The position numbers and the translations under genes are program-made. From Candidatus Heimdallarchaeota archaeon (GTDB taxonomy: Archaea; Asgardarchaeota; Heimdallarchaeia; Heimdallarchaeales; Heimdallarchaeaceae), in the NCBI GenBank assembly GCA_021399345.1, contig JAAFKI010000023.1:1-36520 (forward strand): 36,520 nucleotides of DNA, read 5' to 3'. This document shows positions 28,909 to 35,175 of the stretch, in pieces. The stretch's first letter is position 1. Each line of letters opens with the position of its first letter. A model generated the notes under the pieces. That model had not been told where the DNA came from and did not search any database. It was given only the letters and a program-made list of their open reading frames with translations.

Positions 28909-29307
28909 ATGAGTGAAAGAGAGATCAAGTATTACAAACTATTAGCTAAATTTTATGATACTAAAGAGAAATTTTTTGATGTTAAAGAGGATTTAGATGA
29001 GTTAGAAGGAAAGAAAGTTAATTTTAAGAAAAAGAATGCAGAAGTCAATCAAGAGTTACAAGAACGATTAATGAAAATAAATAAACTGAAAGAGAGTGGA
29101 AAAGGAGACAAAGTTCTCAAGGAAGAAGCTAAATTTAAGAAAAAAGAAGTTACTATAGCAGAAAATAAATCCAAAATTCAAAGCATTCTTATGAAAATTG
29201 AAAAGAAGAAATTAGAATTTCAGAAAGTTAGAGCTGAAATGGAAAAAACCGAAGCTCAAATCAAGACAGAATATTCTGATAAATTCACAGAATTATTGTC
29301 TGAGTAA
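28909..29307 (+). CDS. Coiled-coil helical-hairpin protein
   Basis: K/E-rich heptads, no Pro, central ESGKGD turn. Confidence 0.7.
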   Translation: MSEREIKYYKLLAKFYDTKEKFFDVKEDLDELEGKKVNFKKKNAEVNQELQERLMKINKLKESGKGDKVLKEEAKFKKKEVTIAENKSKIQSILMKIEKKKLEFQKVRAEMEKTEAQIKTEYSDKFTELLSE

Positions 29308-29490: not shown

Positions 29491-30021
29491 GTGACAAAAA
29501 TTAGAAAACAACGAATTATCAAAGATTTTGATGCGCTAAGAAAACTCCATAAAGAAGGTGTTTTAGCTCAAGTGAAAGCATTTCCAAGTAAGAAGAAATC
29601 TATGGGACATCTAGCTATAGGTTTTGATGGACCTGAGAAGACACCTTATGCTGGTGGTAAGTATAAACTTGAAATTCTCTTTGGATCAAACTATCCATAT
29701 AAACCACCATATGTCCGATTACATACACCCATCTGGCATCCCAATTTCTGGCCAAATCCTAAAGAATATCCCAATAAAAGAAATATTTGCCTAGCTTTAG
29801 TTGATAATGAATTAGTAGGAAAACATGATGGCTGGTCTCCTGCTAAGAATATCACGACTGTTATTTATTCTATTCTTGCAATGTTTAATATTGAAGGAGC
29901 TTATGTAAATCCCAAAGATGTATTCAATAAAGAAGCAGCTCTAGAATTCTTAAATGATAAGAAGAAATTCATTAAAAAGGCAAGTTCTATTAGTAAGAAA
30001 TATGCAAAATCTTACTGGTAG
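29491..30021 (+). CDS. Ubiquitin-conjugating enzyme E2
   Basis: GPEKTPYAGG, YPYKPP, IWHPN, catalytic NICL (Cys codon 29788-29790), GWSPA. Confidence 0.95.
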   Translation: MTKIRKQRIIKDFDALRKLHKEGVLAQVKAFPSKKKSMGHLAIGFDGPEKTPYAGGKYKLEILFGSNYPYKPPYVRLHTPIWHPNFWPNPKEYPNKRNICLALVDNELVGKHDGWSPAKNITTVIYSILAMFNIEGAYVNPKDVFNKEAALEFLNDKKKFIKKASSISKKYAKSYW

Positions 30022-30052
30022 AATTAAGTAAAATCTGAAAGGTGAGCTTACA

Positions 30053-30772
30053 ATGGAAAATGAATCTGAATTTCCCGAACAATATGAGAAACTCCTAAAA
30101 AAAATAGAAGCACTAGAGAAAGCCTTAGGACTTCATGAAGTTGATGACATTATTAAGGAAAAAATAGGTGTGAAACAAGAAATAAGTGAGGATACAATCA
30201 CTGAAGATGATTTACAAATCAAAGTGATAAATGAAATAGTTATCTCCCCCAAAGCTTATCTAAAGTTAGCTAAACATGCTTTAACTTATGCAAACGAAAA
30301 CATCCCAAAGAAAGATTGGGTAGAAATTATTGGCTTATTAACAGGGGGAATTAAACAAGAAGACACTCCTCTAGAACAGATTTTTGTTGAAGATTATTGG
30401 CCAGTAGATCAAGGTGATGCAGTCAGTGTAGAAATTGTTGATCAACAGATTTTCACGGAGATATTTCACAAGAAGAACGATGAACATTTTATAATAGGCT
30501 GGGCACATTCACACCCTAGCTATACTCCCTTTCTAAGCGATGATGACTTTGGCACACATCTCCGTTATCAAACCTTTTGGAATAAGTCTATTGCTATTGT
30601 TTTAGATCCCTTAATGATATCTCCTAAGAGTTTTGGAGTTGGAGTTTTCAGAATACACAAAGATAAAGAATCATACTATGAACTATCGAGTGAAGTAGAT
30701 GGTTTGAGCAGTGAAGCAGGTTATGAATCAATCAATCTTTTCATGAAAAACAAATATGAAACTGATTCGTAA
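30053..30772 (+). CDS. JAB/MPN+ (JAMM) metallo-isopeptidase, Rpn11/CSN5-like
   Basis: EIIGLLTG and GWAHSHPSYTPFLSDDD (H-x-H-x7-S-x2-D), IAIVLDP. Confidence 0.95.
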   Translation: MENESEFPEQYEKLLKKIEALEKALGLHEVDDIIKEKIGVKQEISEDTITEDDLQIKVINEIVISPKAYLKLAKHALTYANENIPKKDWVEIIGLLTGGIKQEDTPLEQIFVEDYWPVDQGDAVSVEIVDQQIFTEIFHKKNDEHFIIGWAHSHPSYTPFLSDDDFGTHLRYQTFWNKSIAIVLDPLMISPKSFGVGVFRIHKDKESYYELSSEVDGLSSEAGYESINLFMKNKYETDS

Positions 30773-30794
30773 AAAAATGAAAGCTGGGTTATAA

Positions 30795-31868
30795 TTGGAA
30801 CTAAACAACATCAAAACCTATCTAGCAATTGGAATTGTTGGATTAACCGTCGGAGTACTATATATGGCAATTCAGAAAGATTTGCCGAAAACACTCACTA
30901 TATTTTTTATAACCTTGTATGTTGTTGTTGCTCTGAGATTCTTTCTTGAAAGAAGACATTATAAAAAACATAAAACTATTCTCGCGAGCACTCAATTCCT
31001 AATACTTCCATTTTGCATAATGTTAATGGGAAATTATATCTCTCCCATAGCCGCAGCTTATGAAATATTCAGTATTGATATCGATTTATCTGGTGGGAGC
31101 TCAATTTATTCTCCTTTTAACCTAATCTCTATATCACTGATTTTTCCTGTGATTGTTCTTTCTCTCTATTTTCGAAACTTTTATTCTGGGAAATGGCCCG
31201 CAATTGCAGTAAACAGGAAGGTAAGAAGAGGAAGAAAAATACCCTTTTTGATAAATACAACTTATGTTGCAATTTTATTAGTTGGATTCTTTATTAATTG
31301 GCAAATCGATTTTGTAGGTTTCATTTTTGTTATTTTATACTTCATTTTTATCTTTAGATACTTCATAATTGCATTTGCAATGAGATCTGACCAACAAGCT
31401 CAGGTTACTTCATCTAGATCTGCATCAACAACTAGAAGAAGCAAAAGATCTGTTTCTACTAGATCAAGAAGACCGACAGCTTCTGCATCATCTGCTAGTA
31501 AAGCTTCAAGGTCTTCAAGTGCAAAAATTGCTCCTGGGATAGACGTAAAAGCAACTCGCTCTACTACAACTAAAAAAACATCCAAAATAACAACAGTCTC
31601 TAAAAAAATCTTTCCAATTGGTACACCAAAGAAAGAAGAGATGCAATGTATAATATGCTATATGGATTTTGATAAGAAAGACCGCAGAAGAATCATTTTA
31701 TGCCCCCATTGTCGTTATCCTGCACATGAAGACGAATTTATGAGTTGGTTTAAGACATCAAGACTCTGTGCTAGATGTAATCAGACTATTTCTACTAGAT
31801 ATGTAAACAATCCAAAATATAGAATCAACATAAAGCTCTATATTGAAAAAGTGATTGAAAAGCTATGA
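30795..31868 (+). CDS. Multi-pass membrane protein with C-terminal RING-variant; putative E3 ligase
   Basis: About 6 TM helices, Ser/Arg/Thr-rich linker, CIIC...CPHC..PAHEDEFMSW......CARC (31647-31778); sits in the E2-JAB operon. Confidence 0.85.
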   Translation: MELNNIKTYLAIGIVGLTVGVLYMAIQKDLPKTLTIFFITLYVVVALRFFLERRHYKKHKTILASTQFLILPFCIMLMGNYISPIAAAYEIFSIDIDLSGGSSIYSPFNLISISLIFPVIVLSLYFRNFYSGKWPAIAVNRKVRRGRKIPFLINTTYVAILLVGFFINWQIDFVGFIFVILYFIFIFRYFIIAFAMRSDQQAQVTSSRSASTTRRSKRSVSTRSRRPTASASSASKASRSSSAKIAPGIDVKATRSTTTKKTSKITTVSKKIFPIGTPKKEEMQCIICYMDFDKKDRRRIILCPHCRYPAHEDEFMSWFKTSRLCARCNQTISTRYVNNPKYRINIKLYIEKVIEKL

Positions 31869-31941
31869 TAATTCGAGTAGCCAATTGTTTAATAACTTAA
31901 AAAATATAAACAAGTTGGAAAATAGAAGGAAAGGTATTATC

Positions 31942-32526
31942 ATGGCTACTTGGAAACAGCTATCTGCAGCATTTCTACTATCATTAACTTTAGTTGGTGT
32001 TTCAATTTATTATTTTATAGAAGATAACAATTTCCTTGGAAGAGTTTATATTTTTGCTGCAATTTTTGCTTTCCTAACTTTATTTGTAATTTTCAGAAGT
32101 TTATTTTATTTGAAACACAAAGCAACATTCAATGAAGTGTTTTTTGTTCTAATGGTTCCTCTAATTCCTGTTCTAATTATAATAACTCAGAAATTATTTG
32201 GGATTTACGAGCCTTTTATCGTTTCAACCGGAATATCTACAGAAGGTCTTGACTATATTTTCTATATCAATGCTGTAGATTTTGTTTTATTACCTTATTA
32301 TATAGTTAGCAACTTCATGATTTTTAGAACATTTATTCGATATCCTTTCATCAGACTCAAGGGAACAAGCGAAAAAGGTATTCCTCCAAAATTCTTTGGA
32401 TTCTTACTAATATTCATAATCCCTGCAATCTATATCTTAACTTCAGTATTCTATCTTGAAAATCTCTTCCTAGTGATTTTTGGTGGAGTGTATTTCTATT
32501 CTGCCTTATTGATGCTGTTTGTATGA
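31942..32526 (+). CDS. Six-TM membrane protein, RING-less paralog of the upstream E3 membrane domain
   Basis: Likely start MATWKQ at 31942; shares Y.KHK, YE.F, N..P and (W/Y)P.I...G landmarks with 30795-31868. Confidence 0.75.
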   Translation: MATWKQLSAAFLLSLTLVGVSIYYFIEDNNFLGRVYIFAAIFAFLTLFVIFRSLFYLKHKATFNEVFFVLMVPLIPVLIIITQKLFGIYEPFIVSTGISTEGLDYIFYINAVDFVLLPYYIVSNFMIFRTFIRYPFIRLKGTSEKGIPPKFFGFLLIFIIPAIYILTSVFYLENLFLVIFGGVYFYSALLMLFV

Positions 32527-32570
32527 ATGATTCTAGAAACTAATTAGGTAAAGAAAAGATTTATGTCATT

Positions 32571-33206
32571 TCATTTTGGTTTCTTTTGCTTTGGTAACTT
32601 CGTCTGACTAGGGTATTTTTGTGTTGGTACTTTTTGCTTTGGAGTTTTCTCTTGAATAACTTCTTCTATTTGGGAAGCAGCTGGAGACTCTCTCTCTTTT
32701 TTTTCCTTTTTCTCTTCTTTTGGAAGTGATCGGGATTCCATGCCTTCGATTTCAGAGAATCTATCCCTATCTCTTGAAGGAGGAGTTTCTTCTTTTTTGT
32801 CTTTCTGCTTTTTCTCCATAGCTCTTGATTCCATGTTTTCAATATCTTTGAAAGTTTCTCTTTTAGGAATTGCTTCTTCCTTCTTTTCTTTGGTTTTTGA
32901 TGTTTTCTCAGCTGGAATGTAGTTTGGTTCTTTTGTCTTTTTTAGTTTATCTTGGCTAGGAATTTTCGATTTAGGGATTTTTTGTTTGGGAATTTGAGAA
33001 CTATTTTTCCTTTCTGAAGTACCTCGTAATTGCGCTCGAGCAGGAATTTTACCATCTTTTTTCCTTTTTTGCTTTTTTGGAGGAATTAGATCACTATCAT
33101 CTAATCTTTGTTTTGGAATTTTCTCCTTGGGAATTTTAGAATCATATGGATATTTTTGCTTTGGAATCTTGGCAGAAATCTTATTTTTCTTTTTTTTGTT
33201 TACCAT
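32571..33206 (-). CDS. Lys/Pro-rich intrinsically disordered repeat protein
   Basis: Repeated KIPKQK-like units and two F..IE.MESR repeats; no hydrophobic core. Confidence 0.7.
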   Translation of the reverse strand: MVNKKKKNKISAKIPKQKYPYDSKIPKEKIPKQRLDDSDLIPPKKQKRKKDGKIPARAQLRGTSERKNSSQIPKQKIPKSKIPSQDKLKKTKEPNYIPAEKTSKTKEKKEEAIPKRETFKDIENMESRAMEKKQKDKKEETPPSRDRDRFSEIEGMESRSLPKEEKKEKKERESPAASQIEEVIQEKTPKQKVPTQKYPSQTKLPKQKKPK

Positions 33207-33451
33207 TTTTAAATCAAATCCATGCTTTACTTTTCTTCAACGAATCTGTTTCCAAGAAATTCTAACACTCCAAATCTGTCTATTAACTGTTCTGAACTCC
33301 TCTTGTTATTACTTAGGATATATAACCTCATTTCTACTTATTTATATTACTATTTGCTTTCTTCAACAACCTAAATAAAATGCTTTTTATACCGAAAAGC
33401 ATAGTTTTTTAACAATCTAATGCAATATAGATAAATTGTAATAAACAAGGA

Positions 33452-33811
33452 ATGATTATTATGAGCGAAGAATTTGAAGAATTATCCTTTGATGAAGAAG
33501 AAGAGGAAGTTGAAGAAGAAGAAATTATCTCAAAAACCCCTGAAAAGTCAAAGACTCCTGGAAGTAAAAAAATTAGTGTTTATTTTCAAAGCACTATTGG
33601 GCCAAGTCCAAAACAAGAGAAACTTGTTGTTGCCACTGATGCACCAATTGGTGACATCAAATATACTGTTAGCCAAATATTTGGACTACCTCCAGATGAA
33701 TTTCATCTGTCTCATGCAGGAAGAACCTGCGATTCAGGTGATGTCTTAGAAGATTATGGAGTTGAAGATGGAGATACCATTCTACTTATCCCAGTATCAA
33801 CTGCAGGATAA
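33452..33811 (+). CDS. Ubiquitin-like modifier with acidic N-terminal extension and C-terminal single Gly
   Basis: Beta-grasp pattern ...FHLSHAGR...LEDYGVEDGDTILLIPVSTAG*; directly upstream of E1; alternative start 33461. Confidence 0.88.
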   Translation: MIIMSEEFEELSFDEEEEEVEEEEIISKTPEKSKTPGSKKISVYFQSTIGPSPKQEKLVVATDAPIGDIKYTVSQIFGLPPDEFHLSHAGRTCDSGDVLEDYGVEDGDTILLIPVSTAG

Positions 33812-33869
33812 ATGGAAGAAGTAATCAATATCCAAGAAAGAATTTCTCTTTCTCCCTCCATTTATTTTT
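33808..33869 (+). terminator. Stem-loop plus T tract between the Ubl and E1 genes
   Basis: ATAAATGGA (33808-16) pairs with TCCATTTAT (33857-65); inner AGAAAGA (33835-41) pairs with TCTTTCT (33847-53); followed by a T run. Confidence 0.45.
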
Positions 33870-33924
33870 CAAACAATCATTATTTTTTCATACTAGAAGC
33901 AGAGTAATACTTGAGGAGTATACC

Positions 33925-35175
33925 ATGAGCAACAAATCACAACAATCAAATTTTTTTGATGAAACATTCTCTGAAGAAGAACGAAAACGTCTAGATAGGC
34001 AACTTAGATTACCGGGTTGGAATCAAAAAACTTTGAAGGATTCAAAAGTGGTTATAGCAGGAATTGGCGGATTAGGTACCGAAATTGCAAAGAATCTGGC
34101 AATGGCAGGAGTTGGTACATTACATTTAATAGATTTGGACATTATTGAATACTCTAATCTTAATAGACAAATTTTATTTTCTGATGCAGATGAGGGGGAA
34201 CCTAAATCCAAAGTTTCAGCTAGAGCTTTAAAGAAAATTAATCCCTTTAGCAAATATATTTGGTATCACTCTAATCTTGAAGATGTTGATCCTGAAGTAT
34301 ATGCGACAGCTGATTTAATAATTTCTGGATTAGATTCAGTTACTGCAAGAGCTGAATTAAATCGTAGAGCTGTCCACTTCAAGAAAACTATGATTGATGG
34401 AGGAACAGCAACATACTATGGTCATGTTTACACTTACTCTCCAGGAGAGAATGCATGTCTTCAATGTGATCCTCAGATTGAAAGAGAAAGAGAAACTTTA
34501 GCAGCTTGTACTTTGGTTGGAGTTCCAAGAAAGAGATCTCACTGCTTGCTTAAGGGGCAGTTATCTTTTGAATCGAAACATAACAGAACTCCAGATACAG
34601 CAGTCATAGAAGAAATGAATGTTGTTCTAGATTATGCTAACAATTTAGTTAAAGAGCATTTTCCAGATAAAAGTATTTTTACAATTGACGAAGCTGTAAA
34701 GATGGTTGATCAGCATGATCCAACCATAATCACAATGAATGCAGTTATAGCTTCATTGCAATCGCAGGAAGCAGTTAAGATACTCCATCATGTCAAAGGA
34801 ATCAAACTTGGAACAGTAAACAAAGAATATGTTATTTACAATGGTTTGGTTGGTAAATTCTTCTACATAGAGAAGCCACCTAACAAAAAGTGTGCTTTGT
34901 GCGGTTCAGCTGCGATCATAATTGAGGAAGTAACAATTCCAGAAACTACAACTATCGATATGCTTCTTTCAATCATTAAGAATAAAGGATATAGCTATGA
35001 TCCTGAATTTGAACCATCTTTCTGGTTGATTGATAAGAAAGATCCAGAAGAAGTTGAACTCAATCTAACACTAAAAGAACAAGATATTAGGAATTATGAA
35101 ACTCTATTTGTTACAAGCTTAACCAAAAATGGTGAAGAAATAGATCTCTACATAAGGTTAATACTAAAGGGATAA
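33925..35175 (+). CDS. Ubiquitin-activating enzyme E1 (Uba3/Uba2-like, with catalytic Cys domain and C-terminal ubiquitin-fold-like domain)
   Basis: RLDRQ, GIGGLG, DLDIIEYSNLNRQ, GLDSVTAR, IDGGT, CLQC and CALC Zn pair, ACTLVGVPRKRSHC catalytic Cys (34507-34509). Confidence 0.93.
   Translation: MSNKSQQSNFFDETFSEEERKRLDRQLRLPGWNQKTLKDSKVVIAGIGGLGTEIAKNLAMAGVGTLHLIDLDIIEYSNLNRQILFSDADEGEPKSKVSARALKKINPFSKYIWYHSNLEDVDPEVYATADLIISGLDSVTARAELNRRAVHFKKTMIDGGTATYYGHVYTYSPGENACLQCDPQIERERETLAACTLVGVPRKRSHCLLKGQLSFESKHNRTPDTAVIEEMNVVLDYANNLVKEHFPDKSIFTIDEAVKMVDQHDPTIITMNAVIASLQSQEAVKILHHVKGIKLGTVNKEYVIYNGLVGKFFYIEKPPNKKCALCGSAAIIIEEVTIPETTTIDMLLSIIKNKGYSYDPEFEPSFWLIDKKDPEEVELNLTLKEQDIRNYETLFVTSLTKNGEEIDLYIRLILKG

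Follow-up and report, generated by a model that had tools for sequence, protein, structure and literature searches.

In a 36,520-nucleotide stretch of DNA from Candidatus Heimdallarchaeota archaeon (assembly GCA_021399345.1, contig JAAFKI010000023.1, positions 1 to 36,520), hereafter the window, two adjacent plus-strand genes, here called A (30795-31868) and B (31942-32526), encode membrane proteins of 357 and 194 amino acids, respectively, inside a cluster of ubiquitin-like conjugation genes (29491-35175). Comparison of family profiles shows the six-helix membrane domain of A and protein B to be homologous, as true and very distant paralogues. Since A is encoded after an E2 ubiquitin-conjugating enzyme and a JAB isopeptidase within the ubiquitin-like cluster, it is a putative E3 ligase, and judging from its sequence we regard it as a candidate membrane-embedded RING-type E3 of an operon-encoded ubiquitin-like conjugation system. 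The adjacency of A and B across the class Heimdallarchaeia suggests a two-subunit membrane ubiquitin ligase, and on balance we favour the view that the two proteins, joined by their membrane domains, form a hetero-oligomeric complex.

As single sequences, A and B are not significantly similar: the E-value in BLASTP is 0.57 and the Smith-Waterman z is 1.9, with 26 of 500 shuffles scoring equally high; their hydropathy profiles correlate with r = 0.76 at offset 0. When shallow profiles made of close relatives only (47 A and 51 B sequences) were compared using hhalign, the result was Prob 48-52% and E 1.5e-4 to 1.9e-4 over 118-120 collinear columns, a score equalled by 0 of 180 local column shuffles. 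Diverse profiles, in which this set was joined by remote homologues drawn from whole genomes across the phylum, gave Prob 95.3% and E 2.2e-8 over 163 columns, again collinear, and a separate profile-profile run with alignments A4 (membrane domain of A) and A3 (B) gave Prob 96.6% and E 5.5e-10 over 178 columns. In a control that preserves hydropathy, the columns were shuffled inside blocks of 5, 10 and 20 (n = 180); for the diverse profiles the shuffled scores averaged 14-20 and rose to 35.7 at most, compared with 53.6 for the native pair, none of the 180 reaching the native score, and a reversed profile scored 11.6. Moreover, a hidden Markov model (HMM) of the membrane domain of A, run on whole genomes, matched the B proteins of five genomes (E 1.1e-6, 1.8e-6, 5.2e-6, 1.2e-4 and 2.3e-4), and BLASTP with the membrane domain of A from the window matched three B proteins of family f5 with E 8e-5 to 9e-4 in a small database. 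For calibration, A was compared with the Loki-type clade C, whose members have a like architecture and operon position, and the values (Prob 93.8%, E 1.8e-7) are no better than those of A with B. The first-pass annotation had taken the two adjacent domains of six transmembrane (TM) helices for distant paralogues, on landmarks aligned by eye, and had named profile-profile comparison as a check; this comparison is significant over 163-178 columns (Prob 95-97%) and, together with the shuffle controls and the HMM cross-matches, it bears the proposal out.

The landmarks themselves are collinear and paired in the profile-profile alignment, namely YKKHK... of A with YLKHK... of B, AAYEIF... with GIYEPF..., FNLIS...P with INAVD...P, and KWPAIA...G with RYPFIR...G. 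The identical columns that are at least 80% conserved in both families are Y56, H59, F68, P72/P76 and P118/P118, to which W/Y134 can be added; among close relatives, P135 does not vary in either family, and three invariant prolines correspond in A and B along the whole domain. Most of the sequence signal comes from the N-terminal halves (TM1-3, residues 15-87), which by themselves give Prob 95.7% and E 9.7e-9. The C-terminal half is supported by collinearity, by P118 and W/Y134-P135 in both families, and by matching secondary structure. An internal 3+3 repeat was also considered and rejected, as in neither protein did the N-terminal half match the C-terminal half significantly.

The membrane domain of A occupies residues 1-197 (30795-31385, plus strand), as delimited by a low-confidence AlphaFold2 (AF2) model and the match to the B profile. 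In this model, helices at residues 6-26, 30-55 and 61-81 are followed by a beta-hairpin at 90-109 and by helices at 110-129, 148-168 and 173-199. The model of B, which is confident (predicted local distance difference test, pLDDT, 88; predicted template modelling score, pTM, 0.81), has helices at 2-26, 30-58 and 66-85, a hairpin at 93-110, and helices at 111-132, 149-172 and 175-193, with the hairpin separating helix H3 from H4 and an extended loop joining H4 to H5. Compared by element order, both proteins thus run H1-H3, hairpin, H4-H6 with near-identical residue numbers, and the earlier description of both domains as about 195 residues long agrees with the six helices in each of the AF2 secondary structures and with the coordinates of the open reading frames (ORFs). 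Segments rich in Lys and Arg after H2 and H4 and an acidic hairpin occur in both families (in A, the basic loops are residues 53-60 and 130-147), which indicates that A and B have an N-in/C-in topology. With this topology, the linker and finger of A and the basic loops of both proteins are cytoplasmic, on the side of the membrane where E1, E2 and the ubiquitin-like protein act. Using the B model, Foldseek returned nothing from the PDB at E 0.001 or better (best E 0.64), VIA-align gave Z of at most 8.1 among 48,161 chains, the top rows being two-helix hairpins of about 60 residues, and the ESM Atlas gave TM-scores of at most 0.52 (DUF2157), with a partial rhomboid row at 0.38/0.54. In Pfam, the PDB and the ESM Atlas there was no sequence match or convincing fold match to Hrd1, Pex proteins, Derlin/rhomboid proteins, channels, transporters or retrotranslocons.

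Behind its membrane domain, A has a low-complexity linker rich in Ser, Thr, Arg and Lys (residues 198-276, 31386-31622, read from the translation) and a C-terminal RING-like zinc finger (residues 277-357, 31623-31868, recognised by its invariant ligands), both on the plus strand. The linker differs in length and sequence between homologues, while the domains flanking it are conserved. Seven Cys/His ligands of the finger are invariant across A and clade C, in the pattern C-x2-C...C-P-x-C...P-A-H...C-x-R-C with the spacing C-x2-C, C-x2-C, H, C-x2-C, and an invariant Glu three residues past the His may be the eighth zinc ligand. The whole A protein scores 19 bits with Pfam RING. A finger profile built from A and clade C (alignment A6) was compared with profiles of PDB entries, and the best match among solved structures is the C-terminal zinc finger of IFT144/WDR19, a protein of intraflagellar transport (E 1.1e-5), which has in common with the finger of A the motif C-x2-C...CPxCKxPA...C-x2-CN-P; the RING-H2 finger of RNF24 is a weaker match behind IFT144 (E 0.035). 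B carries no finger, so that the pair consists, as had been noticed at first sight, of one protein with and one without a RING-like domain. Pfam has no family for B nor for the membrane domain of A.

In the ORF list, B runs from a TTG codon (31855-32526). Because about 50 homologues of B are 195 residues long and begin with MGT or MAT, its true start is most likely the ATG at 31942, which gives 194 residues; the sequence GGAAAGG lies 8 nucleotides upstream of this ATG. The B family is small: an exhaustive HMM search of 1.84 billion protein representatives yielded 21 clusters at 50% identity, in all but one of which the protein has at most 199 residues. In the same search no fused form of B was found, and the B profile gave no link to A at library-wide E-values; a language-model search for look-alikes returned unnamed clusters only. 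The homologues of A and B carry the names of Heimdallarchaeota or Heimdallarchaeaceae metagenome-assembled genomes (MAGs). Among close relatives, the mean column identity is 69% for B and 60% for the membrane domain of A, and across families the identity to the window is 23-37% for B and 20-34% for the membrane domain of A. Judged by this conservation, which is no lower than that of the membrane domain of A, B is under purifying selection. Its most conserved residues, A61, T62, N64, R129, R133, Y134, R138 and G146, are on two cytoplasmic loops.

Profiles of A, B and clade C were used to search 400 Asgard genomes. B was found in 54 of them, counting two with weak extra matches only; by family, all within the class Heimdallarchaeia, it is present in 23 of 30 genomes of f1, 9 of 12 of f4, 19 of 22 of f5 and both genomes of f6, and no B was detected among the other 334 genomes searched. 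The distribution of A, in the same four families, nearly equals that of B; two A-profile matches in f4 are B genes. When the coordinates of the two genes were combined across genomes, both were present in 50 genomes, and in 42 of these B lies directly 3' of A on the same strand; at one such locus (L031), B starts a few nucleotides past the end of the A reading frame. The two genes are convergent within about 1.5 kb in two of the 50 genomes and on different contigs in six. In addition, five genomes without A and B are also without a close orthologue of the operon JAB. The convergent cases belong to f4, in genomes G055 (locus L048) and G051 (L045), where B is 1.1-1.4 kb from A. Also in f4, B is on another contig in genomes G052 (L047), G044 (L043) and G053; B is conserved in all five of these f4 genomes. 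No operon genes were detected in the 13 kb around B in G044 and G052, and the context of the unlinked f4 B genes contained no informative families; B is kept at L043 and L047 even when it is unlinked from the operon. The fragmented MAGs G018 (contigs C97 and C151), G013 and G068 also have A and B on different contigs. In G018, the contig carrying B ends about 400 nucleotides upstream of B, which suggests that the assembly breaks in or near the low-complexity linker of A and that the genes are not truly separated.

Clade C consists of protein P0055 and 246 relatives, with labels mostly of Lokiarchaeota or Promethearchaeota, and it is present in 137 of the 400 genomes, including 116 of the 135 genomes of family f20. 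Its finger is clearly homologous to that of A. The clade C HMM matches the A proteins of f6 at 1.5e-8; the comparison of B with clade C is weak (hhalign Prob 17.8%). At the clade C locus, a Ub-E1-E2-JAB cluster precedes the ligase, which has no B-like gene beside it, and no informative families were detected for the 104-residue ORF that follows the Loki-type ligase. The B profile has no match in f20 or in the other families bearing clade C except f6, which has its own A and B; thus the Loki-type ligase is without a paralogous partner. Taking A and clade C together, the RING-bearing membrane form is Asgard-wide. In a quick, unrooted maximum-likelihood tree, each of A, B and C is recovered as a single group (Shimodaira-Hasegawa-like approximate likelihood ratio support, SH-aLRT, of 88, 99 and 98, respectively), the branching by family inside A parallels that inside B, and the stem of B is the longest. 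Most simply read, the RING-bearing membrane protein came first, and a tandem duplicate of it became B by losing the linker and finger before the four families split. An old tandem duplication had been proposed already in the first-pass annotation; the distribution, the tree groups and the parallel branching fit it, while the direction of the change is not fixed by an unrooted tree.

It is the tandem adjacency, the co-occurrence and the purifying selection on B that point to a heteromer. We assume that a gene for a membrane-embedded RING protein might have been duplicated in tandem in the ancestor of these Heimdallarchaeia, that one duplicate then dropped the linker and the finger to become B, and that the two copies could join via their membrane domains as a hetero-oligomeric ligase; this is the usual way in which heteromers of paralogues derive from homomers. 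In such a complex, A would bring the recruitment of E2 charged with ubiquitin (E2~Ub), and B would bring a second conserved cytoplasmic face, made of the loops YxKHKATFNE and FRTFIRYPFIR..GTSEKG, which might position substrates or regulate A at the membrane. Proteins in the membrane or close to it would be the likely targets, and the JAB enzyme could process or reverse the tag. A complex prediction with the membrane domain of A (A4) and B (A3) scored 0.00 in both runs, which had no controls, and weighs neither way.

Several points weigh against the picture of a two-subunit RING ligase. The finger alone remains below threshold in Pfam, with 22.7 bits for zf-RING_2 (cut-off 27.3) and 18.9 bits for Prok-RING_1 (cut-off 29.1), and of the eight zinc ligands canonical for a RING, this candidate E3 finger has only seven conserved. 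Comparison of the C-terminal halves of A and B in isolation gives an out-of-register match that is not significant (E 0.017), so that the homology over the whole domain depends partly on collinearity, a few invariant prolines and matching secondary structure. The AF2 model of A, made from a shallow alignment, has low confidence (pLDDT 61.5). In some f4 genomes, B lies on the strand opposite to A or on a different contig, and strict co-transcription is therefore not required. Furthermore, the clade C ligases apparently function without any B, and, the tree being unrooted, B could alternatively be older and have been lost in the other lineages. Finally, the binding of A to B is itself inferred from gene order, joint occurrence and selection on B.

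Among the other explanations, the one that survives best, which we still consider unlikely, is that B is a paralogue working in the pathway of A without binding it stably, either as a membrane receptor or adaptor for a further operon component such as JAB or E2, or as a preferred substrate or a regulator in transient contact with A. The position of the most conserved B residues on cytoplasmic loops, as would suit a docking site, and the conservation of B in those f4 genomes in which it has left the operon are consistent with this, but the close tandem in 42 of 50 genomes and the spacing of a few nucleotides at L031 speak for a tighter association, and paralogues of a self-associating membrane domain usually keep the interface. 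It is improbable that A and B together make up a channel for proteins, or a lateral gate, tied to ubiquitylation, as an archaeal counterpart of the retrotranslocons of endoplasmic-reticulum-associated degradation (ERAD; Hrd1) or of Pex2/10/12. A membrane-embedded RING on a multi-helix domain with a complete conjugation set alongside would suit such a function, and the membrane subunits of Pex2/10/12 are paralogous; however, the fold searches ended at E 0.64 in Foldseek, Z of at most 8.1 in VIA-align and a TM-score of 0.52 at best in the atlas, and among the 12 aligned columns at least 80% conserved in both families, the polar ones are at helix ends or in loops. The channel or pore that had been offered as an option for the pair finds no support here, there being no fold match to a transporter, channel or retrotranslocon and the conserved residues lying mostly on cytoplasmic loops, not in the membrane core. 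We likewise give little credence to the related idea that the A-B ligase might also extract or gate membrane proteins and be a prokaryotic forerunner of the ERAD- or Pex-type ligase/retrotranslocons, with its subunits already duplicated in those archaea that stand nearest to eukaryotes. Nor does it seem probable that B is a RING-less decoy that competes with A in self-association and down-regulates the ligase in a dominant-negative way: B has lost the catalytic module and kept the presumed assembly domain, and the longest stem of the tree leads to it, but the tandem arrangement is constitutive, implying co-expression, and the strong conservation of B-specific cytoplasmic motifs indicates a gained function and not mere blocking. 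Convergence between two six-helix proteins of separate origin that are equal in size and composition, to which the pairwise BLASTP result and the C-terminal halves alone would be congenial, is already disfavoured and very improbable in view of the hhalign Prob of 95-97%, the 0 of 180 hydropathy-preserving shuffles scoring as high, the whole-genome HMM cross-matches and the identical invariant residues at equivalent positions.

The hetero-oligomeric ligase that we favour would work with the other products of the cluster. Upstream of A on the plus strand are the genes for the E2 enzyme (29491-30021; Pfam UQ_con, E 5.8e-26), with orthologues of 57-77% identity located within the equivalent cluster in f4, f5 and f6, and for the JAB/MPN (Rpn11-like) isopeptidase (30053-30772; Pfam JAB, E 3.4e-12), which is directly 5' of A at all tandem loci examined. 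Downstream of B, on the same strand, are the genes for a ubiquitin-like modifier ending in ...STAG (33452-33811; Pfam ubiquitin, E 3.3e-6) and an E1-like activating enzyme (33925-35175; Pfam ThiF, E 3e-56), whose orthologues elsewhere are 49-60% identical and are in the equivalent cluster. The STAG end of the modifier abuts the stop codon, so that it has a single C-terminal Gly with neither Gly-Gly nor a propeptide. Pfam matches for all five components, the Ub-like, E1-like, E2-like, RING-type and JAB/Rpn11-like proteins, are therefore found inside 29491-35175, and the five-component set occurs also at the f5 and f6 loci, partly at the f4 loci, and at one Loki-type locus. The gene order in f5 is Ub-Ub-E1-E2-JAB-A-B, with two Ub-like genes 5' of E1, and f6 has the same order with one Ub-like gene detected; in the family of the window the order is E2-JAB-A-B-(ORF)-Ub-E1, the Ub-E1 part being downstream. 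Thus the cluster is rearranged among families (the window compared with loci L031-L040), and the E2-JAB-A-B block is its constant part. The ORF in brackets (32571-33206, minus strand) is taken from the ORF list, encodes a low-complexity protein of 211 residues rich in Lys, Pro and Glu without a Pfam family, and separates B from the Ub-like gene; the f5 and f6 clusters showed no counterpart of it, and it is uncertain whether it is a real gene and part of the system. Directly 5' of the E2 gene there is another ORF (28909-29307) for a Lys/Glu-rich, probably coiled-coil protein of 132 residues, which has no significant Pfam family.

In the literature searched, there is no description of an Asgard membrane RING ligase with a RING-less paralogue. 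An operon-encoded ubiquitylation system of Ca. Caldiarchaeum subterraneum was reportedly described by Nunoura and co-workers in 2011. The system of this archaeon is also the subject of Hennell James 2017 (PMC5654768), cited in PMC9192718, and soluble E1/E2/RING cascades are on record for Asgard archaea (bioRxiv 10.1101/2023.07.25.550441). The cluster in the window resembles the Caldiarchaeum/Asgard-type system in having Ub-like, E1-like, E2-like, RING-type and JAB/Rpn11-like proteins in one cluster. However, the RING proteins of those systems, like the archaeal RING proteins characterised so far, are small and soluble, whereas the finger here is joined through a long linker to a six-helix membrane domain, next to which a RING-less copy is encoded. 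The Loki-type clade C, annotated as hypothetical proteins, is like A in its six TM helices, its Ser/Thr/Arg linker, its CxxC...CPxC..PAH..CxRC finger and its place after JAB, but differs in having no B-like gene adjoining.

Among eukaryotes, Hrd1 and Doa10 are multi-spanning membrane RING ligases, and in Pex2/Pex10/Pex12 and Asi1/Asi3 paralogous subunits join through their membrane domains, with the RING in the cytoplasm. A differs from them in having its RING-like finger at the C-terminus of a six-helix membrane domain without a fold assignment; no sequence or fold similarity to the Pex, Asi, Hrd1 or Doa10 proteins was detected, and every paralogue of the Pex and Asi complexes keeps its RING, while B has none. 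The likeness to heteromeric eukaryotic membrane E3 ligases is thus to be taken as an analogy only. Membrane-protein quality control and organelle biology in eukaryotes rely on multi-subunit membrane RING ligases, and the present finding concerns Heimdall-group Asgard archaea, which are close relatives of eukaryotes; if the proposal is true, ubiquitin-type tagging was wired to the membrane before eukaryotes arose. With seven genes and membrane proteins of 357 and 194 residues, the system is small and hence directly testable by reconstitution. For another comparison, active/inactive paralogue pairs such as Rpn11-Rpn8, CSN5-CSN6, Ubc13-Mms2/UEV and BRCA1-BARD1 are known, and their pairing has been demonstrated. 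These pairs are soluble and have other folds, and the pairing of A with B is inferred from the genes, so that the likeness is one of logic only, that of a catalytic subunit with a duplicated partner minus the catalytic element. If the same logic does hold for A and B, the eukaryotic habit of active/inactive paralogue pairs in ubiquitin machines would have begun before there were eukaryotes.

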